Shown: positions 1 to 23,658 of the stretch, piece by piece
How positions within the stretch are numbered: position 1 is the stretch's first letter
How the letters are laid out: each line of letters starts with the position of its first letter
Source of the DNA: a virus
Length of the DNA stretch: 64,000 nt
Virus record (IMG/VR): IMGVR_UViG_3300011113_000257
Span: 46,858 to 110,857 of that record
Reading direction: 5' to 3' (one strand)
Translations under genes and position numbers: made by a program
Notes under the pieces: model-generated
The model's input: only the letters and a program-made list of their open reading frames with translations
Database searches by the model: none
What the model was told of the DNA's origin: nothing

Positions 1-126
1 TAATAACACATCTCCCTGACATTTGCAAATTATCTTTTCCGCGTGTCCCCTGACCTAAAAAATTTCAGTTATCTAACTCAGCGCAAAAAGAACCCCGCAC
101 TTTCGCACGGGGAACTTTTTGTTTGG

Positions 127-285
127 TTAAAGTATTTCTCCTACTGTTGCTTCCTCGCAAGGGTCGCAAATCCAACCCTCTACTCCGTGCTGGTCAAAAG
201 GAATCATAGTGTCCTTGCATTCAACGCATACAACGTATTTTGTCCCGTCTGTAGACGTAGCAACTAAACTATCTAATGCGTTCAT
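127..285 (-). CDS. 52-aa CxxC-CxxC Zn-ribbon microprotein (not in ORF track)
   Basis: Hand translation MNALDSLVATSTDGTKYVVCVECKDTMIPFDQHGVEGWICDPCEEATVGEIL*; SD GGAGG upstream; terminator hairpin follows. Confidence 0.75.
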   Translation of the reverse strand: MNALDSLVATSTDGTKYVVCVECKDTMIPFDQHGVEGWICDPCEEATVGEIL

Positions 286-287
286 CT

Positions 288-476
288 TTACACCTCCCCT
301 GCTTCTAAAGTTTCAAAGTAGTTGTTCACATCAACAATCGAGCAAGGCTCGCATTGTTCATAACCTCCGTCAAGACTGAACTTGTCTAGCGCGTTACCGC
401 ACTCTACGCACTTCTCATCTTCGCCTAGTGCTTCTTCCGCACCGCGTAGTAGCCATTCATCAAATCCTTGTAGCAC
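288..476 (-). CDS. small acidic Zn-ribbon protein
   Basis: CVEC...CEPC; GTG start at 476 after SD GAAAGGGAGG, downstream of promoter 504-532. Confidence 0.7.
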   Translation of the reverse strand: MLQGFDEWLLRGAEEALGEDEKCVECGNALDKFSLDGGYEQCEPCSIVDVNNYFETLEAGEV

Positions 477-583
477 TTTGCTACCTCCCTTTCTTGTATT
501 CCCATTGTAGCGCATTAGCCTGACATTCGCAAGTTACCGCGCAAAAAGAAAGAGCGAGCCTTTCGGCTCGCCCCTCCTAGAGT

Positions 584-994
584 TTAGTAAGTAGCAAAGG
601 TTCGATTAGAGCCTAAGTCCTTAGCAAATTCGTAGATGTGTTCAAGGTTGATTGTTTTGCTTTCGCCCTTGTTGTTGAAAGCAACCGTGTCGCCTTGAAA
701 GTAACGATACTTTTCCCAACCAACCGAGATAATTACCGCAACCCAGTCGTCTTGTAGGTGTCGCTTGAATACTTCTGCCCAGTCTACCTCGACAGTTTCA
801 TCTTCTTCTTCACTCCACACACTCCATAGGTTTGCTTCACCGTCTGGGTCAGCGTCAATAAATCCGTAAAGTGTTACGCCGTCTTTCTCTTGCGTAATTA
901 CTTCAACAGGATAGTTTGCAAGTTCTGTCTTAAACGCTTCCGCGTCTTTAACTGCAAAGTAGTTGCTTCGTGCCTGACCAAAAAATTGAGCCAT
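584..994 (-). CDS. hypothetical phage protein
   Basis: 136-aa ORF with own promoter (1039-1067), leader hairpin, SD GAAGGGA and terminator at about 543-580. Confidence 0.8.
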   Translation of the reverse strand: MAQFFGQARSNYFAVKDAEAFKTELANYPVEVITQEKDGVTLYGFIDADPDGEANLWSVWSEEEDETVEVDWAEVFKRHLQDDWVAVIISVGWEKYRYFQGDTVAFNNKGESKTINLEHIYEFAKDLGSNRTFATY

Positions 995-1044
995 TTCTTA
1001 TCCCTTCCGCAAGTAAGCCCTTCTTACTCGCTGTATCTATAATA

Positions 1045-1308
1045 CTAAATTACTTGACTATTGTCAAACTCTCCTTGTAAGAGTCCGCAACTTTTGCACA
1101 CGAAATCATCTATCTCAAGTTCGTAAAAGTATCTGTGCTCGCAGTCTACGCGCCAAATTGAATAACACTCGCAAGCAAAACAACGGTGCTTATCTTCGCC
1201 GAGTTCGATTACCTCATCTTTTTGGATAATCCAATTACAAGTATCACACCGAAAAGATTTCACTTTTTCATTCGAGTTGTTGCTGACGTAAATCCATTCC
1301 TCTGACAT
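1045..1308 (-). CDS. Cys-rich Zn-ribbon protein
   Basis: CDTC, CFACEC, CEH, CKSC; TAATG-coupled to upstream gene. Confidence 0.75.
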   Translation of the reverse strand: MSEEWIYVSNNSNEKVKSFRCDTCNWIIQKDEVIELGEDKHRCFACECYSIWRVDCEHRYFYELEIDDFVCKSCGLLQGEFDNSQVI

Positions 1309-1409
1309 TAATCGTTCCCTTGTTCATAGCAGTTGTAGCAAGTCCAACCGCTTTCGATTAGGTCATCATCTAGCAAGTCGCATTGGCAGTTTATGGTGTC
1401 CGCGTTCAT
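1308..1409 (-). CDS. 33-aa Cys-rich acidic microprotein (not in ORF track)
   Basis: MNADTINCQCDLLDDDLIESGWTCYNCYEQGND*; TAATG overlaps on both sides. Confidence 0.7.
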   Translation of the reverse strand: MNADTINCQCDLLDDDLIESGWTCYNCYEQGND

Positions 1410-1633
1410 TAGAACACTCTCCCATACTCGTTTTCAACTACTGATAAATCAACAGGTGATGTAACTTCCCATTGTTCGTATGGTGTTGGGTCGTAACTAT
1501 CTCGGCATTCGTTACACCATAGTTCGGGAAACCAACGGTGCTTTTTAGACATTTCGGCGATTGGAAAGTCTTGTTCGCAATCCACGCAAAAATCGTTTTC
1601 TTCTGGTATTTCAACTCCAAGCCATTGTGTCAT
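1409..1633 (-). CDS. small acidic Zn-ribbon protein
   Basis: CVDC...CNEC; SD AAAGGAG. Confidence 0.75.
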   Translation of the reverse strand: MTQWLGVEIPEENDFCVDCEQDFPIAEMSKKHRWFPELWCNECRDSYDPTPYEQWEVTSPVDLSVVENEYGRVF

Positions 1634-1737
1634 TTTGTTCTCCTTTTTGTTTTCGCGGGCTATCCGCTTAGTAATACTTTATCATACTATTTTGTTTGGT
1701 GCAAGTAGTAGGGGGCTTGCGCCCCCCACCGCATTTG

Positions 1738-1908
1738 CTAAACGTATTCACATACTAGTTCTAGTAAATCCGCGTAAGTTTCTACCCCATTTAATAAGCC
1801 GTAGATAGCGTCTGTTAGTTCTGTAGAGTTCCTGATAGTTTCAACTAGCAAACTTTCCTCAACTAGCAAGTCACCTGCAAGACAACGAATTGTCATTTCT
1901 GCACTCAT
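1738..1908 (-). CDS. 56-aa acidic hypothetical protein (not in ORF track)
   Basis: MSAEMTIRCLAGDLLVEES...; SD GAAAGGGA, promoter 1950-1978, terminator at about 1710-1727. Confidence 0.7.
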   Translation of the reverse strand: MSAEMTIRCLAGDLLVEESLLVETIRNSTELTDAIYGLLNGVETYADLLELVCEYV

Positions 1909-1982
1909 TTTGGTTTCCCTTTCTTGTAAGGAGTTTCCTTACATTTCTAATAGTACGGACTTTCTTGACATTTGTCAAGTGA

Positions 1983-2135
1983 TTACGCAAACTCGTTTAT
2001 TGCGTGTCGGCGTTGGGCAGACCTGTCACGATTACGGCGTGTACGCCTATCCGCAAACTTTGCAGACTTTTGGTTTAGGACATAGTTCCCTCGACCTGTC
2101 ACTAGATTGTCTAGTGGACTCTTGCGCTTAGCCAT
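1983..2135 (-). CDS. 50-aa arginine-rich basic protein (not in ORF track)
   Basis: MAKRKSPLDNLVTGRGNYVLNQKSAKFADRRTRRNRDRSAQRRHAINEFA*; SD GAAAGGAG, promoter 2159-2187. Confidence 0.75.
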   Translation of the reverse strand: MAKRKSPLDNLVTGRGNYVLNQKSAKFADRRTRRNRDRSAQRRHAINEFA

Positions 2136-2286
2136 CTCTGACTCCTTTCGATAAATCTATTGTAGCACACTTCCCTGACATTATCAAATCGAACCGCGCT
2201 CGGCGTGTCGCAATTTAATAATCTCCGTAAAAAATTTCAGTTATGAAAATAAGAAAACCCCCACTTTTGGTGGGGGCTTCCTTGCC

Positions 2287-2595
2287 TTACATAAATCGGT
2301 GGTAGAACTCTACTACCTTTTCCCGTGCCTCTTTCCAGTCTGCCGTAGCGCAGATAGTGACTGTCTGCTCGATACCATTCACATCATCTACCCAACCTAT
2401 GGCTTCATAGATAGTCACGCCGTCATCATAGTCATAGACCCTGACTTCGGCATCTACCGTTTCGTTCATCTCGATAGTGATTGCGTTGTCTGTTACTGGG
2501 TTAAGTAGCACCCGTGTAATTCGACTTGCTGGGTGGCGTAGCGTGGCTAGAAATAATCTAGTGGTTTCGCTGTATGTTGGAATTGTAGTTTCCAC
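2287..2595 (-). CDS. hypothetical phage protein
   Basis: GTG start with SD AAAGGGG, leader hairpin, terminator at about 2255-2283. Confidence 0.75.
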   Translation of the reverse strand: METTIPTYSETTRLFLATLRHPASRITRVLLNPVTDNAITIEMNETVDAEVRVYDYDDGVTIYEAIGWVDDVNGIEQTVTICATADWKEAREKVVEFYHRFM

Positions 2596-2728
2596 TTTTG
2601 TTTTACCCCTTTTGAGTTATCTACCGCGCCTTGCGGTATGTAGTAATCGTATCATACCTTTATGACATTTTCTGTATTTCGAGAAAATAAACCCCGCCCG
2701 TAGGCGGGGCTTATCTCGAGTATCCGCA

Positions 2729-3244
2729 TTAGCAGATAGAGAACCCACCGCTTTCGGCTAAGAACTCCGCGAACTCGCGTACGTTCTGAACATCAAACGG
2801 GTAACTTGCTGCCCAATTCTCTTTTGAGCCAACACCGTCACAACCATTACACCAGCCGAACTCGCGCCCGACAAGGATAGCCACTTCTGGTGATAAGGCT
2901 CGGTCAGGCTGACCCGCACTCACGCCAACTTCATCTGTACGAATACCTGTTGAATTGCAGTGCTTACAATCCTCGCGTGGTAAATCCGCAATCTCTGCGT
3001 AGTAGTCTTTTTGGTACTGGGCGGTATGTCCTCGACCAATCTTTTCAAACAAGATGTTTGATAAAGCAATCGCGCCTTCGGCGTTTAGCCCATCTCCATC
3101 ATTGTATTCACCACTTACTTCTGAAGTAAGTTCAGGTGCAACTTCAATGCAGTAATTCCAAAGTGGTCGCCACCACCATACATTGTTGCGGAAGTATTCA
3201 CCGCGCTCTGTTGTCGGTGCAGTTCCAAAAACGTCCATTCCCAT
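2729..3244 (-). CDS. conserved phage protein (MGMD...YFRNNVWWWRPLW type) with CxxCxxxG Zn-finger insertion
   Basis: Start re-called at MGMDVF (SD GAAGGGA; promoter 3289-3317 lies inside the longer track ORF); CKHCNSTG...CNGCDGVG. Confidence 0.8.
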   Translation of the reverse strand: MGMDVFGTAPTTERGEYFRNNVWWWRPLWNYCIEVAPELTSEVSGEYNDGDGLNAEGAIALSNILFEKIGRGHTAQYQKDYYAEIADLPREDCKHCNSTGIRTDEVGVSAGQPDRALSPEVAILVGREFGWCNGCDGVGSKENWAASYPFDVQNVREFAEFLAESGGFSIC

Positions 3245-3412
3245 TTGGGTTTCCCTTCTGTAAGCAAGTCCCTCTTGCTCACTCTGTGAGTTTATCATAC
3301 TAGCCTGACATTCGCAACTCAAACGAAAAACTTTTTTCGTGTCGCCATAACTGAAATTTTTTAAGTAGGCAACAAAAAATCCGCGCAATCTTCCGCGCGG
3401 ACTTTCTTTTGT

Positions 3413-3679
3413 TTAGAACTTGTAGGTGATGTTAAAGTCTTTCCGCGTGAACGGGATAAAGGTTTCCCCGTACTCCACATCTCCAGCGTAATTTGTACCG
3501 ATTTCGTAGCGAACTACAATCTCATCATTCTCTACGAACACGCTAACTAATTCTGAAAGATAACTTGTAGTCGCGTAATCTCTCCAGTTAGTTGTGATGT
3601 CCTCGATAGCGGTGTCTATTGTGTCATACAAAACTTCGCCGTCTACTTCGATAATGTCTATTGTTCTCACGTCTGACAT
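3413..3679 (-). CDS. acidic hypothetical protein
   Basis: Start MSDVRT with SD GAGAGG; promoter 3720-3748. Confidence 0.75.
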   Translation of the reverse strand: MSDVRTIDIIEVDGEVLYDTIDTAIEDITTNWRDYATTSYLSELVSVFVENDEIVVRYEIGTNYAGDVEYGETFIPFTRKDFNITYKF

Positions 3680-3751
3680 TTTGTTTCCTCTCTTTCGCAA
3701 CCCCTTGTTGCTAGTACCTAGCGTACCCTACTTCCCTGACATTTGCAAGTT

Positions 3752-3783
3752 GAAAAAGGGGCGAGTTTCCCCGCCCCCTTTTC
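3752..3783 (-). terminator. representative intrinsic terminator of the early cassettes
   Basis: AAGGGGCG/CGCCCCCTT GC stem flanked by A/T runs; similar hairpins at about 86-120, 543-580, 1710-1727, 2255-2283, 2688-2712, 3379-3402, 6066-6095, 6926-6960, 8925-8960, 10570-10607, 11217-11262. Confidence 0.75.
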
Positions 3784-3798
3784 GTGCGCCCTCCGCGC

Positions 3799-4272
3799 TT
3801 ACCAAGAACTCTTGTAAGCAAAACTCCAGCCCTCTGGAACTTTAGAGAGTATGCGCCCAAGTTGAACAAGGGTATCTTCAACCTGTTCCCAATACCACTC
3901 GTCAATCTCATACGAGCCGAAGAAGAAACCTGCTTGAGTTGGTAGCAATTCTTCCGCCAACTCTTTGTTCTTGCTTTTCCAAACTTTCATACAGACATCA
4001 TTTAATTCCTGCAACTGCTCTCGGCTAACGTAATACTCCGCGCAATTATCTTCACCCTCTTGCACGTTGTCCACGAACCATTGGTGTATCTGGTTAGCCT
4101 TGCGCCAGTAGCCAACTTTTACCTTGACCGTAATTGACGGGTACTCCTCGTTCTCGAAATCTCCTGCGCCAATCGCATCAGAAACTTTTGCGTATGCATC
4201 TCTGGTTGCTTGTTCTTGCCATTCGCCACCTGATAGGTAGTTACTTGCATAAAGGTACTGGTCTAGTCCCAT
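3799..4272 (-). CDS. conserved phage protein (MGLD...YWRKANQIH type)
   Basis: Start re-called at MGLDQY; motifs YWRKANQIHQWF and LLPTQAGFFFGS; promoter 4317-4345. Confidence 0.8.
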   Translation of the reverse strand: MGLDQYLYASNYLSGGEWQEQATRDAYAKVSDAIGAGDFENEEYPSITVKVKVGYWRKANQIHQWFVDNVQEGEDNCAEYYVSREQLQELNDVCMKVWKSKNKELAEELLPTQAGFFFGSYEIDEWYWEQVEDTLVQLGRILSKVPEGWSFAYKSSW

Positions 4273-4440
4273 TTTGTTTTCCCTTCCGTAAGCAAGTCCG
4301 TCTTGCTCACTCTGTAAGTTTATCATACTAGCCTGACATTTGCAACCTGAACGCGAAACTATTTTTTCCGCGCCCGCGCCAGAAAAAATTTCAGTTTTCA
4401 ATTTGAGATAAACGCGGATTTCTCCGCGCTCTCTCGTTTG

Positions 4441-4833
4441 TTATTCGACTTCGTTATCCGCAAGGATTTGCTTGACGGCTTCAATCGCTTCCTCTAGAGT
4501 TTCGCAAACTTCCCACCACTCATCGTCAGCCTTTGGCTCATAGAACTCAAACCAATTATTATTCACCCAGACATCTTGCTCTGCGTGTGCCGTGTTGAAC
4601 TCTGCCAACTTCGTGTCCGTGTCAATCCCTGCGGAGATTAGGTCGCTTGTGTAACGCCAGACATCTCCGTTAGGTAGGTTGATACGCATCTCGCCGTTAG
4701 ACCCAATGTGAAACTCTCGGTCGCCCGACTTAACTACGGCTAGAACTTCCCAGCCGTTAGTCCAGCAATAGAACGCCGAGTCTGTCTGCTCTGGGTTCTG
4801 CTCTACTAAATACTCAACCGTGTAATCCATCAC
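4441..4833 (-). CDS. acidic hypothetical protein
   Basis: 130-aa ORF, last in the operon from promoter 5466-5495. Confidence 0.75.
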   Translation of the reverse strand: MMDYTVEYLVEQNPEQTDSAFYCWTNGWEVLAVVKSGDREFHIGSNGEMRINLPNGDVWRYTSDLISAGIDTDTKLAEFNTAHAEQDVWVNNNWFEFYEPKADDEWWEVCETLEEAIEAVKQILADNEVE

Positions 4834-4838
4834 GCCAC

Positions 4839-5108
4839 CTAGTCCTCGTCTGACTCAACTCGGACACCGCAAGTAAAACACTTTAAGTTTTCCCAGTCAG
4901 GGTACTCGTAGCAAGTATCGTGGATACAGTCGTTAGTATCGAACACCGCGCCAAGTAGTTCCAACAAACCGTCAAGGTACTCTACGGGGAACGCTTTCAT
5001 CTCGCCGTACTTTGACGGTAAGGAAACAACTCCCGACATAATGTCCTCTGAAAGTTCCGCAAGAAAGTCAAACTGCTCTTGCAACATTTCATAGTCAATG
5101 TTTTTCAT
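4839..5108 (-). CDS. acidic protein with C-terminal CxH/CxxC Zn ribbon
   Basis: CIH...CFTC; ATGA overlap. Confidence 0.7.
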   Translation of the reverse strand: MKNIDYEMLQEQFDFLAELSEDIMSGVVSLPSKYGEMKAFPVEYLDGLLELLGAVFDTNDCIHDTCYEYPDWENLKCFTCGVRVESDED

Positions 5109-5422
5109 TTTGTTTTCTCCCCATTGAGTTCTAGCAACACCGCATTTAGAGTGTCGTAAAGTTCTTCGTCTTTTGCGTAGTTCGCATCATTGTCAATCGC
5201 GTGAGTCCACTCATTTGTTGCCGTGTCGTAAACAGTTCCGTCAAAGTAACGAGTTTCATTTTCAATGTTCCACTTGCCTGTTTCGGTATCGAAACACACT
5301 ACATAGTGATGCTGTGTAGTTGAGGGGTAGTAACCCTGCTCGCCTTCACAAGTTTTGCAGAACGGTGTGCAGTCGAAACCGCCCCCGTGTTCTGGACACT
5401 CAACCATTTCTAGTTTGCTCAT
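5105..5422 (-). CDS. Cys-rich hypothetical protein
   Basis: CPEH-GGGFDCTPFCKTCEG motif; SD GAAAGGGA. Confidence 0.75.
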   Translation of the reverse strand: MSKLEMVECPEHGGGFDCTPFCKTCEGEQGYYPSTTQHHYVVCFDTETGKWNIENETRYFDGTVYDTATNEWTHAIDNDANYAKDEELYDTLNAVLLELNGEKTK

Positions 5423-5516
5423 TTTGTTTCCCTTTCTTAGAGTGAGTCCCTCTCGCTCTATGATAAGTATACGCCCCTAGCCTGACATTTGTCAAATCAG
5501 GGGCGCACACCGCGTG

Positions 5517-5753
5517 TTACCAATTCAGTTCTTCGCCATTCTCGTCTTGGAAGATTAAGTCACTCGTATCTGCCGTGTGACCCCAACCGCAACTAAAGTC
5601 ATTCTCAATCCACACTTCAACTCTCTGCATAATGTCCCACAGGGTTATTTCACTATGTGGAGTTTCAGTTTCCGCGTGTATGTCGTTAGCAATCTGGTTT
5701 ACGTCATACGAGACAACTTTCATCACGTTAATGCGTTCTGGTAATTCTCTCAT
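5517..5753 (-). CDS. acidic hypothetical protein
   Basis: TAATG-coupled ORF. Confidence 0.7.
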   Translation of the reverse strand: MRELPERINVMKVVSYDVNQIANDIHAETETPHSEITLWDIMQRVEVWIENDFSCGWGHTADTSDLIFQDENGEELNW

Positions 5754-5920
5754 TATTTCTCCATTCCGTGTCCAACGTGGACTAATCTAATTTCTGGCTC
5801 GCCGACTTCGATTCCCCAGCCATTCTTTAGTAGTTCTAATGCTTCTTCTTCGCTAGTGCAAAGTTTAAGATTCTTAGAGTCAATCTCTAATGTCTTGATT
5901 ACTTGAAACTCGTAACGCAT
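5753..5920 (-). CDS. small hypothetical protein
   Basis: Start re-called at MRYEFQ (SD GAAGGGA), promoter 5963-5991. Confidence 0.7.
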   Translation of the reverse strand: MRYEFQVIKTLEIDSKNLKLCTSEEEALELLKNGWGIEVGEPEIRLVHVGHGMEK

Positions 5921-6101
5921 TTGGTTTCCCTTCCTTAGCAAGCCCTTCTTGCTAATAACTCTATGATACATCAATACCCTGACATTTGCAACTTGAACAC
6001 GAAATTATCTTTTCCCGTGCCTTCGCTGAGTTCCGCATAAAAAATTTCAGTTTTGTGAAACCAAGAAACCCCTAGCCTTTCGGCTAAGGGCATCTTTTGG
6101 A

Positions 6102-6278
6102 TTAGGCGGTGATTAGTCCCTCGTCTATCAAGGTGCTGGCAATTCTGCCGTAAGAACCTTGCAGTTGCCACGCTAGTCGCGTATCAACTAGTTGCTGAAA
6201 CAAGTTAATTGTTTCTTCTCTGTCAAGATTACCTTCTTCGAACTCGATGATTAAGTTCGTGATGTCGTGTAGTGACAT
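6102..6278 (-). CDS. small conserved phage protein (LFQ.LVD..LAWQLQGSYGR type)
   Basis: Start MSLHDI with SD GAAAGGGA; promoter 6321-6350. Confidence 0.75.
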   Translation of the reverse strand: MSLHDITNLIIEFEEGNLDREETINLFQQLVDTRLAWQLQGSYGRIASTLIDEGLITA

Positions 6279-6370
6279 TTGCTTCCCTTTCGTATTCGCC
6301 GTACTTCGGCTTATGTAGTAAGGATACACTAAACCCCTGACATTTGTCAAGGGCTTAGTGTCCCGTGTCT

Positions 6371-6799
6371 TTAGTCTTCTTCTTCGTACTCATCTTCGTC
6401 TTCGTCTTCGTCTTCGTCTTCGTCTTCACGGCATCTGTCGCAGATTGAGTCATAGTCCGCGCCAGACTCGCCACATAGTTGGCAAAACTCGTCTTCGTAT
6501 CCCTGTGGGATTATGCTTTCGTATCCCTCGTTAGGGTCGTCCTCGTTAGTTGCTACTGATTGCACAAACTTTAGCCCGCAAGAGCCTTCGTACCAACGCT
6601 TGACTAGGGTAAGCATTTCGTCAGGGGTTGAGTCGGTAACAAGGAAACTTCCGTCCTCGCCATAGCCCCACTCTGCACTCTGCTTGACTTGCTGGTCGTC
6701 TTTCAAGATGTAAATCTTGTGACAACCATCAAACGAGATGCCTTTGGCTTCGTCAAGTTCTGCCTTAACTTCGTCCCAGATGTCTTGGAAAGTAGTCAT
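6371..6799 (-). CDS. acidic protein with C-terminal Zn ribbon and poly-D/E tail
   Basis: FDGCHKIY motif, CQLC..CDRC, EDEDEDEDEDEDEYEEED tail encoded by (GACGAA)n. Confidence 0.8.
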   Translation of the reverse strand: MTTFQDIWDEVKAELDEAKGISFDGCHKIYILKDDQQVKQSAEWGYGEDGSFLVTDSTPDEMLTLVKRWYEGSCGLKFVQSVATNEDDPNEGYESIIPQGYEDEFCQLCGESGADYDSICDRCREDEDEDEDEDEDEYEEED

Positions 6800-7032
6800 T
6801 TTGATTTCCCTTTCTATCAGTAAGCCTTTCTTGCTGATAAAACTATCATACCACACTATCCTGACATTACCTAATCGGGGCTTTAGCGCGTGTCGCAGAA
6901 AAAATTTCAGTTATCTAAAATTACGAAACCCGTACCAAAAAAATTTCAGTACGGGCTTCGCTTAGAAACTGTCGGAAGGCTGACACACGCTGGAAGGACG
7001 ATACCCCCCGACAGGGCTTATGGGTTATTCAA

Positions 7033-8841
7033 TTATCCGTTACGGTTTCCCATAGCGGTTAGTGCTTTCGCACACGCTTGTCCGATAGCGTTGGACGCTT
7101 CCGTTGGAGAAGCCACACCGCTTAACGGCTCTACCGTTGTCCCCCTTAGGAGACTTCTGGCACTTGAACCGTTGTCGAACGGTATCCATACTACCGCCAC
7201 GCCGTTGCTCTCACACTGCGACACCCAACTCCGAGCCTTTTGGGTCTCGTCGTAAGTGTACACGCCGTCGGATACCACGACTAAAAGCCTAGCACCGTCA
7301 CCGTTGAGCAGGTTCAACTCGCCGTCTATTGCCTTGAACGCCTTGTCAAACTTTTCCGTACCGTCTGGTGCTGTGTACACCGTTACGTCCGTTAAGTGCT
7401 GACCAGACTTGAGCGTAGGGAACACGTCGTCGCCGTAGTACACCATCGCGCACTTGCCTTGGACTCGCCGAGTTGCTTCCGACATTACCCACGCCGTTGT
7501 CGCCATCGGTTGCATCGCCGAATTCATCGAACCGCTAATGTCTACCATCACGCCGACCTTTAGTGTTGGCTCGTCCGTTGTCTTACGGACTCGCTTACGC
7601 CAAGGTTGCGCCGTTGGTTGCATACCTATCGCCTTGTGTGCTTCGTTCTGCATAGCCGAGCGAGTTCGTAGCCGTCCACCGGGAACAATGCTACGCACTT
7701 CAACAACATCGCGCTCGCGATACTTTGCACGCTCTAATGCGCTCGCCACTTTCACCGCGCTGATACGCTCGTCTGCCGTAGGCTTACGAACCTCTGTTGC
7801 ATAACTACGAGTACGAGTAGATGCTGATGGACCAGTACCTCGCCCGAAAACTTCTTGAGCAACTTTAACATTCTCACGACTTTGCTTTGCACTGTCCGCG
7901 CGATTCTTAACTTCCTCTTTCCATTCCTCTGACTCCTCTTGGTCTGCAAGTTCGGAGTAGTTAGACACCGCAACATTTTCAGATGCTTCTTTCAACTTCT
8001 CAAGTAACTCTTTTAATGCTTCGCCAACTTCAGATGTAGACTCACCACTTCCACCAGAAGTACTTTCACTACCAGAATTATCCTCGCCACGTTCGTTTGC
8101 AAGGTCGCGAACAATCTGTGCCCACTCACGCGCTAATGGATAAACAGGTTCCATGTTTCGATGGTCTGTGTGTGTAATGAAACGCTCGATAACACTGCAT
8201 AACTTTTCAACAGTTTCGTTGCCTAAGTATTCCTCTATAAATTCTGTAACCTCTAGAACATCATCACGCTCTAAAATTCCACCAATGATTCGACCATGCA
8301 CTAGTCCAACTAAAGTTGCAATGTTTGAAACACTACCCTGTGTCAAATCCTCTGACTCAAAATCTGCAATAACAATTTCCATTGCACTTGAGCATAGAAA
8401 TGCGCGATACCGAGCATCAAGCAAAATACCTTGTGCTTCGATTCGTGATTCCTCAAGAAGCATTAGTGCTTCGTACTCGTCTGACTTTAATGCTTCGTAA
8501 GCAGACTCTAAACTCCACTTCGAGAAACGAGCGTGAAATGCTTCGTGCATTATCGCGCCAGTTGCCTTTGGAAATTCGTACTGCGTTGAGCGTTGATTAA
8601 TGTCGCTAATGTGTTCTGGCTTAATGCCAAACCCGAAAGCAATTTCTGTGTTCACTTCAATTTCTGCAATCGCTGGCTTGTAGCACGCTGGCGCATTGCT
8701 ACCTGCAACAGGAGATGCAAGTCCAACTAAATCACCGCGACCTGCGATTGAGTTTGCTAGTTGCGCAATCTGCGAACCAACTGCATACCATTCTGGATGT
8801 CTTTCACCAGAAGTCTTACTGTGTGTGTCAATGTGTGCCAT
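7033..8841 (-). CDS. VWA-domain protein with N-terminal HExxH metallopeptidase-like motif (CobT-like MoxR partner)
   Basis: HEAFH, LEESRIE, MIDAS DISGSM and VVSDG; start re-called at MAHIDT after promoter 8885-8913 and SD. Confidence 0.85.
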   Translation of the reverse strand: MAHIDTHSKTSGERHPEWYAVGSQIAQLANSIAGRGDLVGLASPVAGSNAPACYKPAIAEIEVNTEIAFGFGIKPEHISDINQRSTQYEFPKATGAIMHEAFHARFSKWSLESAYEALKSDEYEALMLLEESRIEAQGILLDARYRAFLCSSAMEIVIADFESEDLTQGSVSNIATLVGLVHGRIIGGILERDDVLEVTEFIEEYLGNETVEKLCSVIERFITHTDHRNMEPVYPLAREWAQIVRDLANERGEDNSGSESTSGGSGESTSEVGEALKELLEKLKEASENVAVSNYSELADQEESEEWKEEVKNRADSAKQSRENVKVAQEVFGRGTGPSASTRTRSYATEVRKPTADERISAVKVASALERAKYRERDVVEVRSIVPGGRLRTRSAMQNEAHKAIGMQPTAQPWRKRVRKTTDEPTLKVGVMVDISGSMNSAMQPMATTAWVMSEATRRVQGKCAMVYYGDDVFPTLKSGQHLTDVTVYTAPDGTEKFDKAFKAIDGELNLLNGDGARLLVVVSDGVYTYDETQKARSWVSQCESNGVAVVWIPFDNGSSARSLLRGTTVEPLSGVASPTEASNAIGQACAKALTAMGNRNG

Positions 8842-8978
8842 CTCTGGCTCCTTCCTTTTGTACGCCCCTTTGACGTACTCTGTGAGTTTATCATACCTTC
8901 TTGATATTTCCAAATTGAAGGGTGGGGAGTCGGGAAACACTCACGAAAACCGACTCCCCTTAGCAAGGATGAAAGGGA

Positions 8979-10010
8979 CTAAATCCTTGCTGGCTTGTAT
9001 TCCGCACCAAACACGCGAGACAGAACATCTGCCACGATTGGTCTGTCCATCTCTGGTGCAGAAGCAAGTAAGTTCGAGATACCAAACGGAACCCCGAATG
9101 TTGTAACGATGTCGCGGAACGCTAAAAGTTCGCGCATCTGTGGAGCCCACGAGACTTCACCAGACTCTTGTTTCTTAGCAAGATTCTGCGCAACAGTAAC
9201 GAGGTTGCTAGGTACACCTAAGGTGCGAGCAAGTGACCAGTCAGTTGCCATCTCTGCTTGAACAGTAAAGCGAGATAGTAAGGCTTCTGAAAGTCGTACT
9301 CCCGGAGCATTAGGGTTAGTTGCACCCACAACATAAAAGTCAGGGTGAACCTTAACAGTACCTCTGTCAGGATTAGCAGTGACAGTAATTTCGCCACGTC
9401 CATCCATCACGCCATACAAACCTGAAAGTTGCTTAGGGTCAATCAGACCAATCTCGTCAATGAACAAGACTGCACCTTCCTCTACTGCTCGCACAAGTGG
9501 ACCATCTACCCACTCGAAACCACCAGCAGGATTCTGTACGAACCCACCAAGGAAGTCTGACATTTCGATGTCAGCAGTTCCAAGTACTGTGTACATATTT
9601 CCACCAAACGCTGCTTCGACTAATGCAGTCTTACCAGTTCCCGGTGCGCCATAAAGCAACGCGAACATTGGCGAGCCAACTTTGTCTGTGACAGACAAGG
9701 TAGTTGCTTCACGAGCCTTGCGTAATGTTGCAACATCTTGATGTTCACCCCAAGTACGAGCGTGGTACACACTTCCATTTGGACGAATGTATTGACTACT
9801 ACTTGATTCAAGTGTGACACCTGATGTTGTAATTGGTGTCGCTACGCGAGCAACGCGAGGTGCGCGTTCTACGAAACGACCTTGTGGTAAAACCTGCGAG
9901 ATTACTCTCATAGATGCTTCTGTTGATACTGACTGCGCAACCATGTCGTCTAACATGGAAGTGAATTCAGTTCCCCACTTTGAATAAATTTCATTTTCTT
10001 TGATGCTCAT
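8979..10010 (-). CDS. MoxR/CbbQ/CobS-type AAA+ ATPase
   Basis: Walker A GAPGTGKT, WVDGPL, Walker B LFIDE, ATNP, ALLSRF. Confidence 0.9.
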   Translation of the reverse strand: MSIKENEIYSKWGTEFTSMLDDMVAQSVSTEASMRVISQVLPQGRFVERAPRVARVATPITTSGVTLESSSSQYIRPNGSVYHARTWGEHQDVATLRKAREATTLSVTDKVGSPMFALLYGAPGTGKTALVEAAFGGNMYTVLGTADIEMSDFLGGFVQNPAGGFEWVDGPLVRAVEEGAVLFIDEIGLIDPKQLSGLYGVMDGRGEITVTANPDRGTVKVHPDFYVVGATNPNAPGVRLSEALLSRFTVQAEMATDWSLARTLGVPSNLVTVAQNLAKKQESGEVSWAPQMRELLAFRDIVTTFGVPFGISNLLASAPEMDRPIVADVLSRVFGAEYKPARI

Positions 10011-10026
10011 AATTTTCAGTCCCTTT

Positions 10027-10494
10027 CTACGCTGTGAACATTTCTGGATAAGATAATGCAGTTCGAGTCTGGTTGATTCGATGCACGACCTTAGTTGGAG
10101 TCTTACCTTCTGTTACATCTGTCAAGTCTTTCTGTGAAACTTCCACAAAAAATGGCTTGCCAATAAGTACGCTACTAATTGAAACGCGCTTCATAAACCA
10201 CGCTAGTGTTTGAAGTCGCTCCTCGCGATGGTTCTCTGATGTAACCCCTGTTGCTGGGTCTACGAGACTACGCTGAAGTGCTTGCACCTTCCATTGTTTC
10301 TTTGGCTGTGATGCCGAAAGACGACGATAGTAGACACGCGCTGTCGAAAAATTTCCAAGTTCATTCCAACCATCTGGAGTAATGAACATCTGAAAAATCT
10401 GTTGGTATTCATTCTTGAATTCCGCGTACAAGGCTGTGCCCTGTACTTTCTTTTCTGGGTCTGTAAGCAGACCAAGAGGTGTTTCTGTTGACAT
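10027..10494 (-). CDS. hypothetical protein
   Basis: 155-aa ORF; promoter 10541-10569; SD GAAAGGA. Confidence 0.75.
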   Translation of the reverse strand: MSTETPLGLLTDPEKKVQGTALYAEFKNEYQQIFQMFITPDGWNELGNFSTARVYYRRLSASQPKKQWKVQALQRSLVDPATGVTSENHREERLQTLAWFMKRVSISSVLIGKPFFVEVSQKDLTDVTEGKTPTKVVHRINQTRTALSYPEMFTA

Positions 10495-10618
10495 AGTGAG
10501 TATTTCCTTTCTTTATGTCTTTTGTCCCTGTGACATTTCTAGTTTAGCATAACGCTATGATGGAGTCAAATCGGGGTAGGAGTATGTCTAAGGAGACCTA
10601 CCCCGACCTGACTTCTAA

Positions 10619-10951
10619 CTACTTAGCGACAATGATGTCGTAAGTAGAAACCTTTGAACAGGTTTCGTATGCTTCTGGATAAACTTCTTTCAGAAGCGTT
10701 GAGTCCACATTGGTGCGTGAACGTGGTGCAAGTTCCACTACTGGAAGCCCTGCGACAGTACCAACCTTGGCAGAACCAATTAGGTCACGAATTGCGCTGT
10801 CAAGTTCTGACTTTGCTTTTTCGAGTTCCTTGATTGCAAGTTTTGCGTTAGCAAAATCTGCAAGCAGGTTCGCGATGTTGGTGTTGTCCAATTCAACGGT
10901 GGACGTTTCCGTGACAACCTGTGTTGTCGTTACCTGTGTGCGTATGCTCAC
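10619..10951 (-). CDS. coiled-coil protein resembling the C-terminal part of YqaJ/Gp157-like phage proteins
   Basis: LAIKELEKAKSELDSAIR...VDSTLLKEVYPEAY; GTG start after SD GAAAGGGG. Confidence 0.55.
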   Translation of the reverse strand: MSIRTQVTTTQVVTETSTVELDNTNIANLLADFANAKLAIKELEKAKSELDSAIRDLIGSAKVGTVAGLPVVELAPRSRTNVDSTLLKEVYPEAYETCSKVSTYDIIVAK

Positions 10952-11265
10952 TTTGGCGATTCCCCTTTCAAGGAAAGTTCGATAGACCATCTAACGAACA
11001 GTTCTAACTTTACGCCCTACACCTGACATTTGTCAAATCGAGCGTTTCCACCCCGATTTCTCGGGCTGTTTTCGTTCATAGAACCAATGTAACACATTAC
11101 CCTGACATCCGCAAGTTTATTTGATAACGATTTGATAACGGACCGGGAACTGAAATTTTTTAGTTCCGGGTTGTTGAAGGCGGGCTCCAATAAAAAATTT
11201 CACTTTTGGGCAAAAAGAAACCCCCGTTCGAAACTCACTGGTTTCGATTTAACGGGGGTTGGTCT

Positions 11266-11454
11266 TTAGAGTTCTTGCTCCCACTTTTCGATGTCAAACA
11301 TTTCCCAGATTTCATCATCTGTGAAATTTTCCTTCAACCAAATAGCGGTGCGCTTTTGGACTACTGGGTTTTCGTCTACTGGCTTAGCAGTTCCGAAGAT
11401 GCTACCCATAAGGGCTTGGTATGCGTGTGCGTTTGCTTCATGCGGTTTGTTCAT
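11266..11454 (-). CDS. small hypothetical protein, leaderless
   Basis: ATG lies 6 nt after -10 TACCGT. Confidence 0.65.
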   Translation of the reverse strand: MNKPHEANAHAYQALMGSIFGTAKPVDENPVVQKRTAIWLKENFTDDEIWEMFDIEKWEQEL

Positions 11455-11915
11455 ACTCCTACGGTAACACGAGGCACTGACATTTCTTCAGGTGTCCAAA
11501 TGTAGGGGAGGTCACTTGGCGTATCGGGAAAAAATTCAGAGTAGTACTCAGGGGCTTTGCGCAAGAGATTCGAGCGGTGCGATTCGTGGAACCGTGAGTT
11601 CCCGATGAACCAAGGCAAGCCTTCGTACCGCTTACCTTGCACCGTTAGGTCTCGCATCTTCTCGATGAAGTACGGTAGCAGGTTGTCGACATACCCTCTC
11701 CGTTTCCACTCCAGCGACATTATTGAACCGTAGTACGCGAGTGCGAACTCGTGCCCACGCCACATCTTGGTCGCAGGGTGGTTGACCCAACCCGTTGTCT
11801 CGCCGTTGAGCGCCATCAGTATTTGCTTGGTCTCAACCCGTTGCTTCCCGAGCCGTCGGTAGTCCAATACCCTCGCCGTCTTTTCAAAATCGGCGTATGG
11901 CAGGAACGTCTGCAT
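11451..11915 (-). CDS. pyrimidine-dimer DNA glycosylase/endonuclease V-like protein (MSMEG_6728 family)
   Basis: MQTFLPY...LDYRRLGKQRVE...NHPATKMWRG...SHRSNLLRK...Y. Confidence 0.85.
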   Translation of the reverse strand: MQTFLPYADFEKTARVLDYRRLGKQRVETKQILMALNGETTGWVNHPATKMWRGHEFALAYYGSIMSLEWKRRGYVDNLLPYFIEKMRDLTVQGKRYEGLPWFIGNSRFHESHRSNLLRKAPEYYSEFFPDTPSDLPYIWTPEEMSVPRVTVGV

Positions 11916-12076
11916 TAGCCCTCGCCGTTCTCTCGAACTAGCGCGATGGCTCTCGCCATGCCTGCAGACCAACCGTCGTTAAACGCGACATCCGTCTCGT
12001 CCATTTCCTCAGCGTCCGTCATGTCTTCTTCGGTTACCCGTTCCCACTCCTCCATTAAAATTTCTAATAGTGTCAT
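11915..12076 (-). CDS. small acidic protein
   Basis: MTLLEILMEEW..., ATGA-coupled. Confidence 0.6.
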   Translation of the reverse strand: MTLLEILMEEWERVTEEDMTDAEEMDETDVAFNDGWSAGMARAIALVRENGEG

Positions 12077-12234
12077 GTGGTCACGCCCGCTAACGCCCAC
12101 GCCTTCTTGAGGTCGCGGTCGAAGTCGCGTTGCAACTTATCCCACGCCGTTTCGTCAAAAAGGATTGGGTGCGCCTCTTGCTTATTTCTGCTAAGCACTC
12201 GCCGTATAAAAGATTTCAGTTCCGTGTAGTTCAT
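12073..12234 (-). CDS. 53-aa hypothetical protein (not in ORF track)
   Basis: MNYTELKSFIRRVLSRNK...; SD AGGAGGAG, leader hairpin, TTGACA-17-TAAAGT promoter. Confidence 0.7.
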   Translation of the reverse strand: MNYTELKSFIRRVLSRNKQEAHPILFDETAWDKLQRDFDRDLKKAWALAGVTT

Positions 12235-12312
12235 GTTCTTGCTCCTCCTTTGTTTTGCGGGGCACGCCGTGTGCCTCGCCGTCGTGATGTATTAACTTTA
12301 TGATAAAAGTTT

Positions 12313-12597
12313 CTAGATGTCAAGCGCGTACTCTGGGAGTTCCATCCCTGCCCCAACTAACGCGCGCCGTATTAAACCTTGCTGACGCGAAGTTGTCTGC
12401 GAGTATTTATCTACGTTCAGATAAGTAACCTGACGTTTTTCTGTGTTTATACTAGCCATCCGTGTTGAGTAAGAGTAGATGTCGTAGATGATGTCGCCAC
12501 CAGCGTCGCACCATTTCGAGGCTCTCATGCTGTGACCGTGCTTGAATGGTTTGAATGCTGGAATAAATTCTTCTGCAATTTCTTTGTAACTAGGCAT
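12313..12597 (-). CDS. conserved phage hypothetical protein (YSYST...KYSQTTSRQQ type)
   Basis: 94-aa ORF; promoter 12640-12668. Confidence 0.75.
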   Translation of the reverse strand: MPSYKEIAEEFIPAFKPFKHGHSMRASKWCDAGGDIIYDIYSYSTRMASINTEKRQVTYLNVDKYSQTTSRQQGLIRRALVGAGMELPEYALDI

Positions 12598-12682
12598 TTT
12601 TATTTCCCTTCCCGTTGATGTGTCTCACCAACAAGAACCATTCTATCATACCAACCTGACATTCGCAACTTAAGGCACGCCA

Positions 12683-13036
12683 TTAGATTTCTTCAGTGTC
12701 TTCCATTAGTTCAGGAAGATTTTCCTCAACCATCTCCCAGAAGGTATCAAAAATTTCGATATTCTCTCGAACCTCTTCAACGGGTGCATCGTATTCAATG
12801 GTAACGATTTCGTGGACGTGCTCTTCGTCTTCCTCAACGTGGTGAGTTCGAAACACATAGTCACCGTCTTCGGTGATTAGGTAATTAATAAACATCACGG
12901 AGCACTCAGATGTGAGCGCGACTTGGTATGTCTCGGTTAGGGGGTCGTAGATAGGACAGCAAGCAGAAATGATGTCGTGCATGTAGTGCCCTTTTTTGAT
13001 GACACGGCTTGGGTGAATGTTGTTCGGTTTGTTCAT
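12683..13036 (-). CDS. very acidic hypothetical protein, leaderless
   Basis: ATG at 13036 lies 6 nt after -10 of promoter 13043-13071. Confidence 0.7.
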   Translation of the reverse strand: MNKPNNIHPSRVIKKGHYMHDIISACCPIYDPLTETYQVALTSECSVMFINYLITEDGDYVFRTHHVEEDEEHVHEIVTIEYDAPVEEVRENIEIFDTFWEMVEENLPELMEDTEEI

Positions 13037-13270
13037 ACTAGCAGTATTGCACATCCGTCTGACATTTCCAAATCGGGCTCAGGGCACACCGTTTAAAAAA
13101 TTTCAGTTTTGAGTTTGCACGGATGGATTTTGCGGTCCTAGCCCGGAAAATATAAAAAGGAGGCGGGTGGCCTGGGCGGCTCTTCCAGGCTAAGCGGTTT
13201 AACCGTTTAAAAGATTGCGTCAACAATCAGGGCGGCTAGAATAAGCGCCCCGAGAAATGCAAAAGGAAAT

Positions 13271-13438
13271 TTAAACTCGCTCATCGGTCATCTCGGCGGT
13301 CAGCATCTTAACCAGTTCCGTTGCGCGGTTGGCTCTTGCGGTTACGCGGATGTGCTCTTCGCGGGTCTTCGCAAGCGGGATGTCTGCGGTTAGGTCACGG
13401 GCTAATTCTTCGGCGACTGCTAATAAGTTATTTGTCAT
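13271..13438 (-). CDS. small hypothetical protein
   Basis: Overlaps the end of the upstream gene. Confidence 0.55.
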   Translation of the reverse strand: MTNNLLAVAEELARDLTADIPLAKTREEHIRVTARANRATELVKMLTAEMTDERV

Positions 13439-14411
13439 CAGGGCTCGCCGCCTGGTCTTCTGAGGCTGCATCCGTTATTATATTTTCCGGGCGGTCATCA
13501 GGATTGGATACAATCACGGCATCCGTTATCTCGTAGGTGGCTACATCCGTTGGTGTTTCTTCCGGGGACAGGACGCTATAAACGCTCGCCGCTCCTGCAG
13601 CAAGCCGTTGCAATCTTTCAGCAACAATGACATGTGGCGGTCGCGCATCGTTGACTTCGACATCAACGCTAAGTTCCATTCCTCCGCGCACGCCCGCACG
13701 GTCGAGAATCTCCGTCGCCGCTTTTAACTTAACGGGTTCAGACTCAGCGTTCTCCATCATATCTTCTAGAACGTCGACTGCATACGGTGCGGCTTGGATG
13801 AGTTTGCGTCTCGCCCGTTCTACATCTTCGCCCGGTTTGCGGACGGACTTTAAGTGGGCTCGGCACAAGCCGTCATCTTTGAGGCGACCAGATGCCCACA
13901 ACATACAGCGCAAGCCGTCATCCTTGATAGTTCGGCATCGCGTCGGGAGAACTGCGGGTTGCTTTCTTTCGCTCGCCGTTGGTTCGTTTTGTTCCGCTAC
14001 CCACTTACGGGTCGCGCCGATAACCCAAGGCGGAGAAATCTTCATGGCGTTGTCATCAAGCAGGAGGTCAACACCCGTTAGGTAATCTGAATTATTATTT
14101 GAACCGTCAACTAAAAGCGGTCGCTTCTCAACGAGTGAGAGGACACGCCGTTCGCGCATTGCCTCTGGAGACCGTGCGGCTATCATACCCGTTGGGTTAC
14201 CCGTTGCGTCGTAAACGGAATCCCAGTTGTAATGGGCTCGCCGTAATAGGGAGCGGTTGTCGTAGGTGTCGTCGCACACGCCCCGTTCGTGCTCTATGAT
14301 ACCGAGTTCGGAAAGGTCGGGGCGTAGGTCTAGCGGTGTATCAAGGCGTGGCGCTCTATCCGTTGGGTCATCTTTGGGACCCTCGGAATCAAACTTTATA
14401 ACTTCTGTCAT
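13428..14411 (-). CDS. putative terminase small subunit-like DNA-binding protein
   Basis: C-x9-C...C-x2-H finger (RCRTIKDDGLRC...LCRAH) followed by helical AESEPVKLKAATEILDRAG motif seen in actinophage TerS-like proteins. Confidence 0.5.
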   Translation of the reverse strand: MTEVIKFDSEGPKDDPTDRAPRLDTPLDLRPDLSELGIIEHERGVCDDTYDNRSLLRRAHYNWDSVYDATGNPTGMIAARSPEAMRERRVLSLVEKRPLLVDGSNNNSDYLTGVDLLLDDNAMKISPPWVIGATRKWVAEQNEPTASERKQPAVLPTRCRTIKDDGLRCMLWASGRLKDDGLCRAHLKSVRKPGEDVERARRKLIQAAPYAVDVLEDMMENAESEPVKLKAATEILDRAGVRGGMELSVDVEVNDARPPHVIVAERLQRLAAGAASVYSVLSPEETPTDVATYEITDAVIVSNPDDRPENIITDAASEDQAASPDDK

Positions 14412-14526
14412 GCCTCGCCGTTCAATAAAAAATTTCAGTTATCGTCTCACAATGTGGAACGATTGCTCGCCGTTAAAAAATTTCAGTTTTGCGGGCGGGG
14501 AAGCCGCCGCTGCCTGGAAGTTGTAA

Positions 14527-16152: not shown

Positions 16153-16159
16153 ACTAACT

Positions 16160-16560
16160 CCTTAAAGTTATCCACAGGCGCACCCTGATTCCAACTATAG
16201 TACCGACTATAACATAAAAAAACTAAACATTAAACATAAAACATAAAAGTCAACTATATTTTACCAACCCCCCTAAGCGCACGCATACGCGCGTATGGAA
16301 AATATAGTTAACTTTTATGTATGGTGTATAGTTATTTTAGTGTTACTAGTCAGATTATTTTATCCGAAAATATTTTTTTCTGCTAGTAACTTACCACTTC
16401 GACTCATTTCGACCCGAAACTAAACATTAAAAAACCATACACTATAAACCATACACTAAACATAAAAGTCGACTATATTTCCCAGACCAAAATCACAAAT
16501 CCAACACAAAGTTATCCACAGCCCTTACCTCAAAAATTGCCACATCACCCCCCTTGACAG
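16160..16560. other. putative replication origin
   Basis: ORF-free AT-skewed region at the strand switch; DnaA boxes TTATCCACA at 16168-16176 and 16512-16520; 22-bp repeat x3; 14-bp palindrome. Confidence 0.6.
16241..16480. repeat. ACATAAAAGTYRACTATATTT repeat x3 (inverted pair 16241-16262/16299-16320, direct copy 16460-16480)
   Basis: Read directly; about 1 mismatch between copies. Confidence 0.9.
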
Positions 16561-16582
16561 ACCCAAATCCAAGGAGTAACCT
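16554..16582 (+). promoter_or_regulatory. sigma-A-type promoter TTGACA-17-TAACCT
   Basis: Consensus spacing; ATG 6 nt downstream. Confidence 0.75.
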
Positions 16583-16588
16583 ACCGAT

Positions 16589-17380: not shown

Positions 17381-17671
17381 ATGCTTCTTAGAAAGTATAT
17401 CGGAGAGACACTATTAAAAGAACGCACCAAGCAAGGAAGAACACTAAGAGACGTATCTACTCAAGCAACTGTTTCTCTAGGATATCTATCTGAACTAGAA
17501 AGAGGTCTAAAGGAAGTTTCTTCTGAACTCTTAAATGCAATCTGCGAGGCTTTAGTTATAAGCCCCGTTGACCTGTTAATAGATGTAACTGCATCTATGA
17601 GCCAAGATTTAGGGAGGGAGTTGGATAATGAGTTATATTCCATCAACCATAAAGAATCAATTAGTATCTAA
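17381..17671 (+). CDS. clgR: ClgR-like XRE/HTH transcriptional regulator
   Basis: IGETL..ERTKQGRTLRDVS..ATVSLGYLSELERGLKEVSSELLNAICEAL matches the actinobacterial ClgR HTH signature. Confidence 0.75.
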   Translation: MLLRKYIGETLLKERTKQGRTLRDVSTQATVSLGYLSELERGLKEVSSELLNAICEALVISPVDLLIDVTASMSQDLGRELDNELYSINHKESISI

Positions 17672-20995: not shown

Positions 20996-21224
20996 TAGCA
21001 AAGGTGATTACCACCCTAATGACCCATCTGCAGAGAACGAAAGACTGTACAGAATTTTAGATAAACTGAACAGTATTAGAAAGCACTCTCAAGTACGAGG
21101 AGACTCAGAGCAGTTTATTCTTGGCATCTTGCTAAGTACTGACATCGTAACTGCCGAAATACGTGGAGAAATTCATAAAATAGATGGCAGTAATACCCAC
21201 CCCGACCAAATACCCCTAATCTAG
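20988..21224 (+). CDS. hypothetical protein
   Basis: SD AAGGAG. Confidence 0.6.
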   Translation: MLDSKGDYHPNDPSAENERLYRILDKLNSIRKHSQVRGDSEQFILGILLSTDIVTAEIRGEIHKIDGSNTHPDQIPLI

Positions 21225-21277
21225 CACTGCTAGTATTTTAACTCTTACTCAAATACCACCCCCAAAAAAGGATACTT

Positions 21278-23649: not shown

Positions 23650-23658
23650 AATACTAAT

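Follow-up and report, generated by a model that had tools for sequence, protein, structure and literature searches.

A lineage-specific 14-letter box at terminator–promoter junctions in the early-gene block of an uncultured phage

We analysed a window of 64,000 nucleotides from the virus genome IMGVR_UViG_3300011113_000257 (bases 46,858–110,857 of a 110,857-bp IMG/VR contig, 83% complete by CheckV), in whose early-gene block a 14-letter word, hereafter the box, recurs between genes. It derives from a lake phage of actinobacteria; phage and host are uncultured. At the contig ends the assembly breaks off within repetitive collagen-like genes. The polymerase of this phage is nearest to that of the Actinomycetia phage DSL-LC01 (PolA 76% identical), followed by those of large Microbacterium and Arthrobacter phages; DSL-LC01 itself was assembled from a lake metagenome and has a predicted Actinomycetia host (PMC10611076). 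Searching a phage collection for near-identical sequence with a 16-kb block as query gave no match. The genes of the early block all lie on the minus strand and encode small ORFan proteins, a MoxR-like ATPase and a pyrimidine-dimer glycosylase, and we read the whole as a typical host-takeover early block. It is a mosaic of self-contained cassettes, each with its terminator, promoter and gene, that are gained and lost between relatives. The first gene of the block (13428–14411, minus strand) encodes a protein of 327 amino acids that is 47–92% identical across about 60 related loci.

Within the window, the box (AAAAAATTTCAGTT) occurs exactly ten times, eight times on the plus strand and twice on the minus strand (3349 and 11148), where shuffled sequences lead one to expect 0.01; allowing up to two mismatches raises the count to 17, where 2.3 would be expected. 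Three copies carry one mismatch (6938, 11192 and 12208), there is a single near-match at 43381, and further two-mismatch hits at 1252, 9983 and 43752 look like chance occurrences. A preliminary description of the window had listed the same ten exact copies, three one-mismatch copies and lone near-match, and had placed the word in the first 14.5 kb. That limit holds for the window and is an effect of its left edge, since the box-rich block continues beyond it: to the left of the window we found 4 further exact and about 6 further one-mismatch boxes. Counted over the whole contig, the 14 exact and roughly ten one-mismatch boxes are not evenly spread: they fall at 38.8–61.3 kb, and the one exception, a near-match at 90.2 kb, is the T tail of a terminator. 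This segment of about 22 kb is that of the early genes and lies in the interior of the contig; the middle and late regions have no boxes.

Read on the gene strand the box is AACTGAAATTTTTT, and in its extended form it becomes A-N-AACTGAAATTTTTT-A, with A favoured two bases before the box and directly after it. Information content drops to about zero within 2–3 nt outside the box, giving it sharp edges. Nearly all copies are intergenic; at 38–42 kb of the contig, one-mismatch boxes stand just ahead of start codons. A literature search for the 14-letter word returned chance hits only.

The junctions at which boxes lie share an anatomy. Along the gene strand, a stop codon is usually followed by a GC-rich hairpin with a T run (an intrinsic terminator), then after 3–15 nt by the box, the promoter, a leader and the next gene. 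The gap from box to promoter is 22–46 nt in this genome and reaches about 80 nt in relatives, and the association of the box with terminator-plus-promoter junctions is significant by crude automatic calls (odds ratio 4.6, p = 4e-4). The intergenic position upstream of a −35-like hexamer that had been described for these copies is thus borne out, at 22–46 nt. About half of the early promoters have no box; these either abut a terminator directly or follow a gene that lacks one. The early promoters take the form TTGnnn-aa-TGTCAG-N10-TAnnnT, and the pattern TGTC[AG][GT]-N10-[TCA]A-N3-T matches the gene strand of 20 kb 20 times, compared with 0.9 expected; these promoters lie at 44.5–60 kb of the contig (window 1–13072). 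Promoters that depend on PafBC, also called RecA-NDp promoters, have the consensus tGTCgg(N10)tA(N3)T with a −26 element at −23 to −28 (PMC8635444). The phage's early promoters match this consensus with the −26 element correctly placed, and differ from it in having A rather than G as the fifth base and a −35-like TTGnnn just upstream. By their letters, then, these promoters (and not the box) carry the sequence and spacing of PafBC-dependent host promoters. Our literature search found no link between PafBC and phage promoters. The early promoters of DSL-LC01 are GATTCTAAAGATGTTATAAT and stand directly past terminators.

Individual junctions illustrate this arrangement (features are on the minus strand unless noted). 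The exact box at 57–70 lies 15 nt past a terminator (112–93) and 27 nt ahead of the −35 of a promoter (1–29; TTGCAA, aa, TGTCAG, N10, TATTAT) that is cut by the window start. The box at 2229–2242 follows a terminator at 2283–2251 and precedes by 40 nt the −35 of a promoter of the general form (2159–2188), and the one at 6039–6052 follows a terminator at 6091–6068 and stands 46 nt ahead of the −35 of the promoter at 5963–5992. At 3349–3362 the box is exact and inverted relative to the genes (plus strand), yet it occupies the usual place, past a two-way terminator hairpin (3401–3380) and about 30 nt ahead of the −35 of the promoter at 3289–3318. That promoter has a paralogue at 4317–4346, whose −35 is preceded at 36 nt by a forward box (4383–4396). 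The two cassettes, reported earlier as duplicates apart from a flipped box, share promoter and leader and have opposite boxes, but the surroundings of the boxes differ, so we regard them as paralogous cassettes and not as a simple flip. One promoter (6845–6874) has two boxes in its intergenic gap: an exact box at 6899–6912, 24 nt ahead of the −35, and a one-mismatch copy (TACTGAAATTTTTT) at 6938–6951 in the loop of a terminator-like hairpin (6961–6923). Another (11086–11115) likewise has two, an exact inverted box at 11148–11161 (plus strand) and, 30 nt upstream of it and immediately past a terminator, a one-mismatch copy (AAGTGAAATTTTTT) at 11192–11205. Two copies had been placed in hairpin loops, and both indeed lie between short inverted repeats (6926–6960 and 11143–11169). 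An exact box at 13095–13108 stands 22 nt ahead of the −35 of the promoter at 13043–13072. The first gene of the block is preceded by an exact tandem pair with a 48-nt period, a distal copy at 14475–14488 and a proximal one at 14427–14440 that ends 15 nt before the ATG; between the proximal box and the ATG there is only a ribosome-binding site and no sigma-A-type promoter. The local version of the box precedes this conserved gene in at least six lineages. The remaining one-mismatch copy (AACTGAAATCTTTT, 12208–12221) falls in the first codons of a small open reading frame (ORF) and is kept in two relatives (G001 and G002); we doubt that it is a working site.

Comparison with close relatives revealed how strictly the box is kept. 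The relative G001 (IMGVR_UViG_3300044630_002434) is 80–90% identical to this genome (G000) in the region and has 18 exact and 8 one-mismatch boxes in the same block. Across 12 syntenic pairs of boxes in the two genomes, the 60-nt flanks are 82.8% identical and the boxes themselves identical at 168 of 168 positions, showing that the box is under purifying selection. A second pair of relatives, G003 (31% complete) and G004 (62% complete), share 84% identity. In G003 the box occurs 30 times as AACTGAAATTTTTT without mismatch; in G004, 25 boxes read AACTGAACTTTTTT and just 3 have the form with A. In 17 syntenic pairs from these two phages the flanks are 81.8% identical and thirteen of the box positions are all unchanged, while position 8 differs (A vs C) in 15 pairs; the two unswitched pairs are copies inside ORFs. 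G003 and G004 thus differ by a concerted switch of dialect, which cannot have arisen by independent neutral change. Ordinary gene conversion is an unlikely source as well, because the identity extends over only 14–21 bp and the copies in coding sequence were spared. Scanning IMG/VR for other variants at position 8 yielded only the A and C types and one additional A-type fragment, L131. The simplest reading of these alignments is that a trans-acting reader changed its specificity and the working sites followed.

The box tolerates either orientation. In this genome 11 exact boxes point with the genes and 3 against them, and among boxes with at most one mismatch the ratio is 19:12 in G003 and 20:10 in G004, where the flanking genes are co-directional and the inverted boxes sit in the same place, past a terminator and ahead of a promoter. 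One syntenic box, that at 11148, points forward in G001 but is inverted in both G000 and G002. The polarity noted in the preliminary description therefore follows gene direction in this genome and is weaker in G003 and G004. A second oriented word, GACACG(C), lies between box and promoter, 25–50 nt ahead of the −35 at several promoters (examples are found near window 40–50, 2195–2210, 3325–3335 and 6880–6890). On the gene strand, 16 of 21 GACACG copies lie in the early 20 kb, compared with 3 for the reverse complement, and its orientation is kept even beside a flipped box. We take GACACG(C) to resemble the GACAC half-site reported for WhiA. Since the box flips while GACACG retains the orientation of the genes, the box is a separate module tolerating either orientation, and this tolerance argues for a site in double-stranded DNA over a promoter or an RNA signal. 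Only one box, at 33731 in G001, falls within the spacer of a promoter, between TTGACA and TAGACT, and is degenerate in this genome.

Two further sequences occur near the early promoters. A direct repeat, GTTATCAAA-N2-GTTATC, is found immediately upstream of some −35s (window 11115–11145, minus strand; contig 40,800–40,870) and in several G003 cassettes too, and a conserved block, GAAAA(A/G)ATA(G/A)TTTCGTGTTCAA, occupies −37 to −58 in other cassettes across lineages. Both are probably sites for further regulators.

Beyond these close relatives the box persists in altered form. We compared 80 loci around the MoxR-like gene; each of the roughly 36 closest lineages has its own repeated word built on an A6/T6 run, mostly at the same junction. 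These dialect words include TGTAAATTTTTTAGG, TATTTTTTAGGGG, GGGGTAAAAATT, CCGAGGTAAAAA and GGAAAAAAATT in related phages. Written in the orientation of the A run, the dialects include CcTAAAAAATTTACAA (L037), ttCCCCTAAAAAATAT (L040), GGGGTAAAAATT (L050–L057), GAGGTAAAAA (L029–L033) and GGAAAAAAATT (L027 and L034–L036), and all dialects, of which there are eight or more, share a T-A6-T core. No box was seen in the more distant lineages among the loci or in DSL-LC01. In L040 the word is 2–5 nt from a canonical −35. In L060 (locus 500–9000), a more distant relative, about 20 early promoters have an A-run word ahead of the −10 at a constant distance of 15 nt, and each is built from a terminator, CCGTAAAA(AAT or TTC), 15 nt and TACAATAAAG, with no TTGACA-like −35; there the A-run word appears to replace the −35, and its homology to the box is uncertain.

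With moderate confidence, a shade above even, we propose that a sequence-specific DNA-binding protein, acting on the early transcription units, docks at the box. Such a reader would contact the A6/T6 tract, probably through a narrow minor groove, together with the adjacent 5–8 lineage-specific base pairs. The box would mark the junction between the intrinsic terminator of one early unit and the PafBC-type, sigma-A-like promoter of the next, work in either orientation and tune about 25 early cassettes as a set. An orientation-independent, double-stranded protein site was already suggested in the preliminary description, and the conservation of the box amid flanks of 83% identity, the concerted switch, the inverted copies and the lineage versions support it. 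We infer the protein nature of the reader, its origin in the phage genome and which way it acts.

Several results weigh against this proposal. Pfam searches of about 50 ORFs, mostly in or beside the early block, did not find the reader. They returned three helix-turn-helix (HTH) proteins: a 96-amino-acid Xre-type protein (window 17381–17671), a 155-amino-acid double-HTH protein (contig 36220–36687) and a weak hit of 64 amino acids (contig 38865–39059). When these candidates were aligned across A-type and C-type phages, none tracked the dialects convincingly; the sole fitting change, a V-to-I substitution in one helix of the double-HTH protein in G004 only, is weak evidence. Nor did gene presence or absence within 10 kb of the anchor gene separate 36 box-bearing from 41 box-free loci for any gene. 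The homology of the dialects is drawn from position and the shared T-A6-T core, and not from an alignment. Finally, the distances between box and promoter cluster weakly near 26, 37, 48, 59 and 79 nt, but the phasing is marginal (Rayleigh p about 0.05 at a 10.5-nt period in 24 partly de-duplicated cases, uncorrected for shared ancestry), so helical phasing is suggestive at most; with spacing this variable, the geometry does not settle between an activator and a silencer. A scan of divergence between G003 and G004 orthologues showed nothing decisive, and an AlphaFold model of the 327-amino-acid first-gene product (pLDDT, the predicted local distance difference test score, 74) had no significant fold match.

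Among the alternatives, we consider it unlikely, though the least so, that the box is an intrinsic A6/T6 bend or an UP-like contact for the alpha subunit of the host's RNA polymerase, needing no dedicated reader, that boosts strong early promoters. The T-A6-T core common to all dialects, the box that abuts the −35 by 2–5 nt in L040 and the marginal 10.5-nt phasing would all fit such an element, which would also accept either orientation, and GAAATTTTTT is similar to the distal half of the Escherichia coli UP-element consensus. A bend or UP-like contact leaves unexplained, however, why AACTG is conserved at 100% amid 83%-identical flanks and why an A-to-C change at the A/T junction occurred in concert at 15 of 17 syntenic sites, and on these grounds the plain UP-like or bending element entertained in the preliminary description falls short as an explanation. 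In this clade, moreover, the box lies 22–80 nt from the −35, mostly past the reach of a classical UP element, and about half of the same promoters do without it. Somewhat less likely again, in our judgement, is that the box acts as a small promoter in its own right, with GAAATT or TAAATT as the −10-like element and transcription starting close to where the T run ends, or as a signal in the RNA; either would open a second route of expression into the same genes. The T-run box that directly precedes the ribosome-binding site of the first gene in G000/G001, G003, G004 and L037, with no other promoter between, is what one would expect of a promoter, as are the one-mismatch boxes just ahead of start codons at 38–42 kb of the contig and the fixed 15-nt spacing before about 20 promoters in L060. 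Yet in G003 and G004, where the neighbouring genes run the same way, a third of the boxes are flipped without a change of place and, as promoters, would direct transcription into the upstream terminator. We looked for a second fixed promoter element 3′ of the box and found none, the change to C in G004 makes one of the two conceivable −10 registers weaker, and the middle and late regions lack the box altogether.

The mosaic structure of the early block invites a different idea, namely that cassettes recombine at the box, or that a mobile cassette left it behind as a footprint, with copying or gene conversion, and not a reader, keeping the copies alike. In T4-like phages, composite terminator/promoter repeats mediate the shuffling of cassettes (PMC2839356, PMC4122927). 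In the present phages, the median distance from a breakpoint to the nearest box was 315 nt for G000/G001 and 269 nt for G003/G004, against 355 and 272 nt at random (16 and 22 ends), the identity ends within 2–3 nt of the box, too short for ordinary conversion tracts, and boxes inside ORFs were not converted; we therefore hold this account to be improbable. Least probable is a role in DNA entry, packaging or marking of a first-injected terminal segment, as had been proposed when the boxes were known from the window. The restriction of boxes to one block of about 22 kb would suit such a signal, but that block is internal to the contig (38.8–61.3 of 110.9 kb) and coincides with the early genes, and the boxes are scattered singly over the intergenic junctions, in company with terminators and promoters. 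We give a similarly slight chance to the notion that host PafBC, whose WYL domains are best activated by poly(dT) (PMC11804915), has single-stranded dT offered to these domains in cis by the T6 run.

The proposed docking site has its closest parallels in the stoperators of Cluster A phages, where an asymmetric 13-mer at more than 20 sites is bound by a monomeric repressor and occurs in lineage dialects (PMC9283540). Like the stoperators of L5, Bxb1 and TipsytheTRex, the box is an asymmetric word of 13–14 bp found 20–30 times in the short gaps between genes of an actinobacterial phage; for the box itself the figures are 14 bp and 14–30 exact copies per genome, nearly all intergenic. A further likeness lies in lineage-specific dialects altered in concert, which in Cluster A mycobacteriophages change together with repressor specificity (PMC6550527). 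Stoperators, however, are strictly co-oriented with transcription, and reversal abolishes their function (PMC9283540), whereas boxes point with and against the genes at ratios of 11:3, 19:12 and 20:10. Stoperators are also spread genome-wide, with one overlapping the early lytic promoter, and are read by the two-domain immunity repressor of a temperate phage; boxes occur only in the early block, past terminators and ahead of promoters. The parts of the phage examined showed nothing to suggest an immunity system. We therefore regard the earlier label "stoperator-like" as apt by analogy only, the box being an analogue of stoperators and not a member of their class.

Other many-copy sites are similar in part. 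The C1 operators of P1 and the conserved inverted repeats (CIRs) of the Streptomyces phage phiC31 are 17-bp sites through which one regulator acts at many intergenic copies near early promoters and terminators, and P1 operators resemble the box in being asymmetric and present in either orientation. Unlike the box, these are repressor operators of temperate phages that mostly overlap promoters, and the CIRs are palindromic. UP elements and upstream A-tracts are A/T tracts upstream of the −35 of strong early promoters, as the box is, yet they are degenerate, lie at −40 to −60 and have no lineage-specific exact word; in this clade the box is found 22–80 nt ahead of the −35, with no variation in its non-A/T letters. 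The PeSL (promoter-early stem-loop) cassettes of T4-type phages bring to mind the same layout: small early genes form arrays within a region of plastic, mosaic make-up, and a conserved terminator/promoter module flanks each of them (PMC2839356, PMC4122927). A PeSL is a promoter plus stem-loop that is itself the substrate for homologous recombination, whereas the box is a separate, sharp-edged 14-bp word, and breakpoints did not gather at boxes in the two genome pairs, a small sample.

Several other features of the genome deserve mention. In the early block, contig positions 39,308–41,919 encode a histone-deacetylase-family protein (314 amino acids), a dual-specificity phosphatase (168 amino acids) and an HslV/proteasome-like subunit (186 amino acids). 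The large neighbour of the MoxR-like ATPase bears the label "VWA-like" solely through synteny with the DSL-LC01 annotation and has no domain match. A hairpin with a conserved GGTATCGTCCTTCCAGCGTGTGTCAG-like loop (window 6965–7030, minus strand) lies 3′ of the 635-amino-acid gene beside the MoxR-like gene and is kept in many lineages. The early block is separated from a plus-strand block by a 436-bp AT-rich gap (16153–16588, GC about 0.37) with repeated TATGTTTAGT-like words, which may be a divergent control region or an origin. The plus-strand block holds an Xre-type HTH gene (17381–17671) and, at 20351–20995, a Mom-family protein and a PNKP-type phosphatase. Among the virion genes, a giant ORF of 3,827 amino acids (contig 20,885–32,368, minus strand; 3,289 amino acids in DSL-LC01) was considered as an RNA polymerase and rejected, as Pfam shows only a DEDD (RNase T-type) exonuclease domain, at residues 1494–1659.

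Returning to the docking-site proposal, the reader might act in one of two ways. It could be a positive or architectural factor bound 60–100 bp upstream of the start site, and we lean towards such a role given the upstream position, the possible phasing and the layouts in L040 and L060. It could instead be a shut-off or boundary factor, with which the tie to terminators, the spacer copy at 33731 in G001 and the copies before the first gene are equally compatible. More tentatively, and with less than an even chance, the box may be the address of a new type of regulator that acts at unit boundaries and not at core promoters. Placed between each terminator and the following PafBC-type promoter, it would recognize, whichever way the box points, an A6 tract together with a short half-site peculiar to the lineage, with about 25 cassettes switched together. 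The specificity of such a regulator would be retuned fast, by one base between phages that are 84% identical.

To our knowledge, the timing of early genes in large lytic actinobacterial phages is essentially unknown, and the group described here is abundant in lakes and uncultured. G003 and G004 provide a natural experiment, being close relatives that differ by one letter in nearly every working box; the pair defines both the oligonucleotides with which to fish for the reader and the residues expected to differ in it. If the reader is phage-encoded, box and reader pairs would be compact orthogonal regulatory parts for actinobacteria, and would offer a second case, beyond the Cluster A stoperators, of site and reader co-evolving across a phage genome. 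A boundary regulator, if real, would keep control of the early genes specific to each phage lineage when cells are co-infected. Sitting on promoters that copy the host's DNA-damage (PafBC) promoter, the box also belongs to a broader scheme in which early genes are wired to the state of the host.

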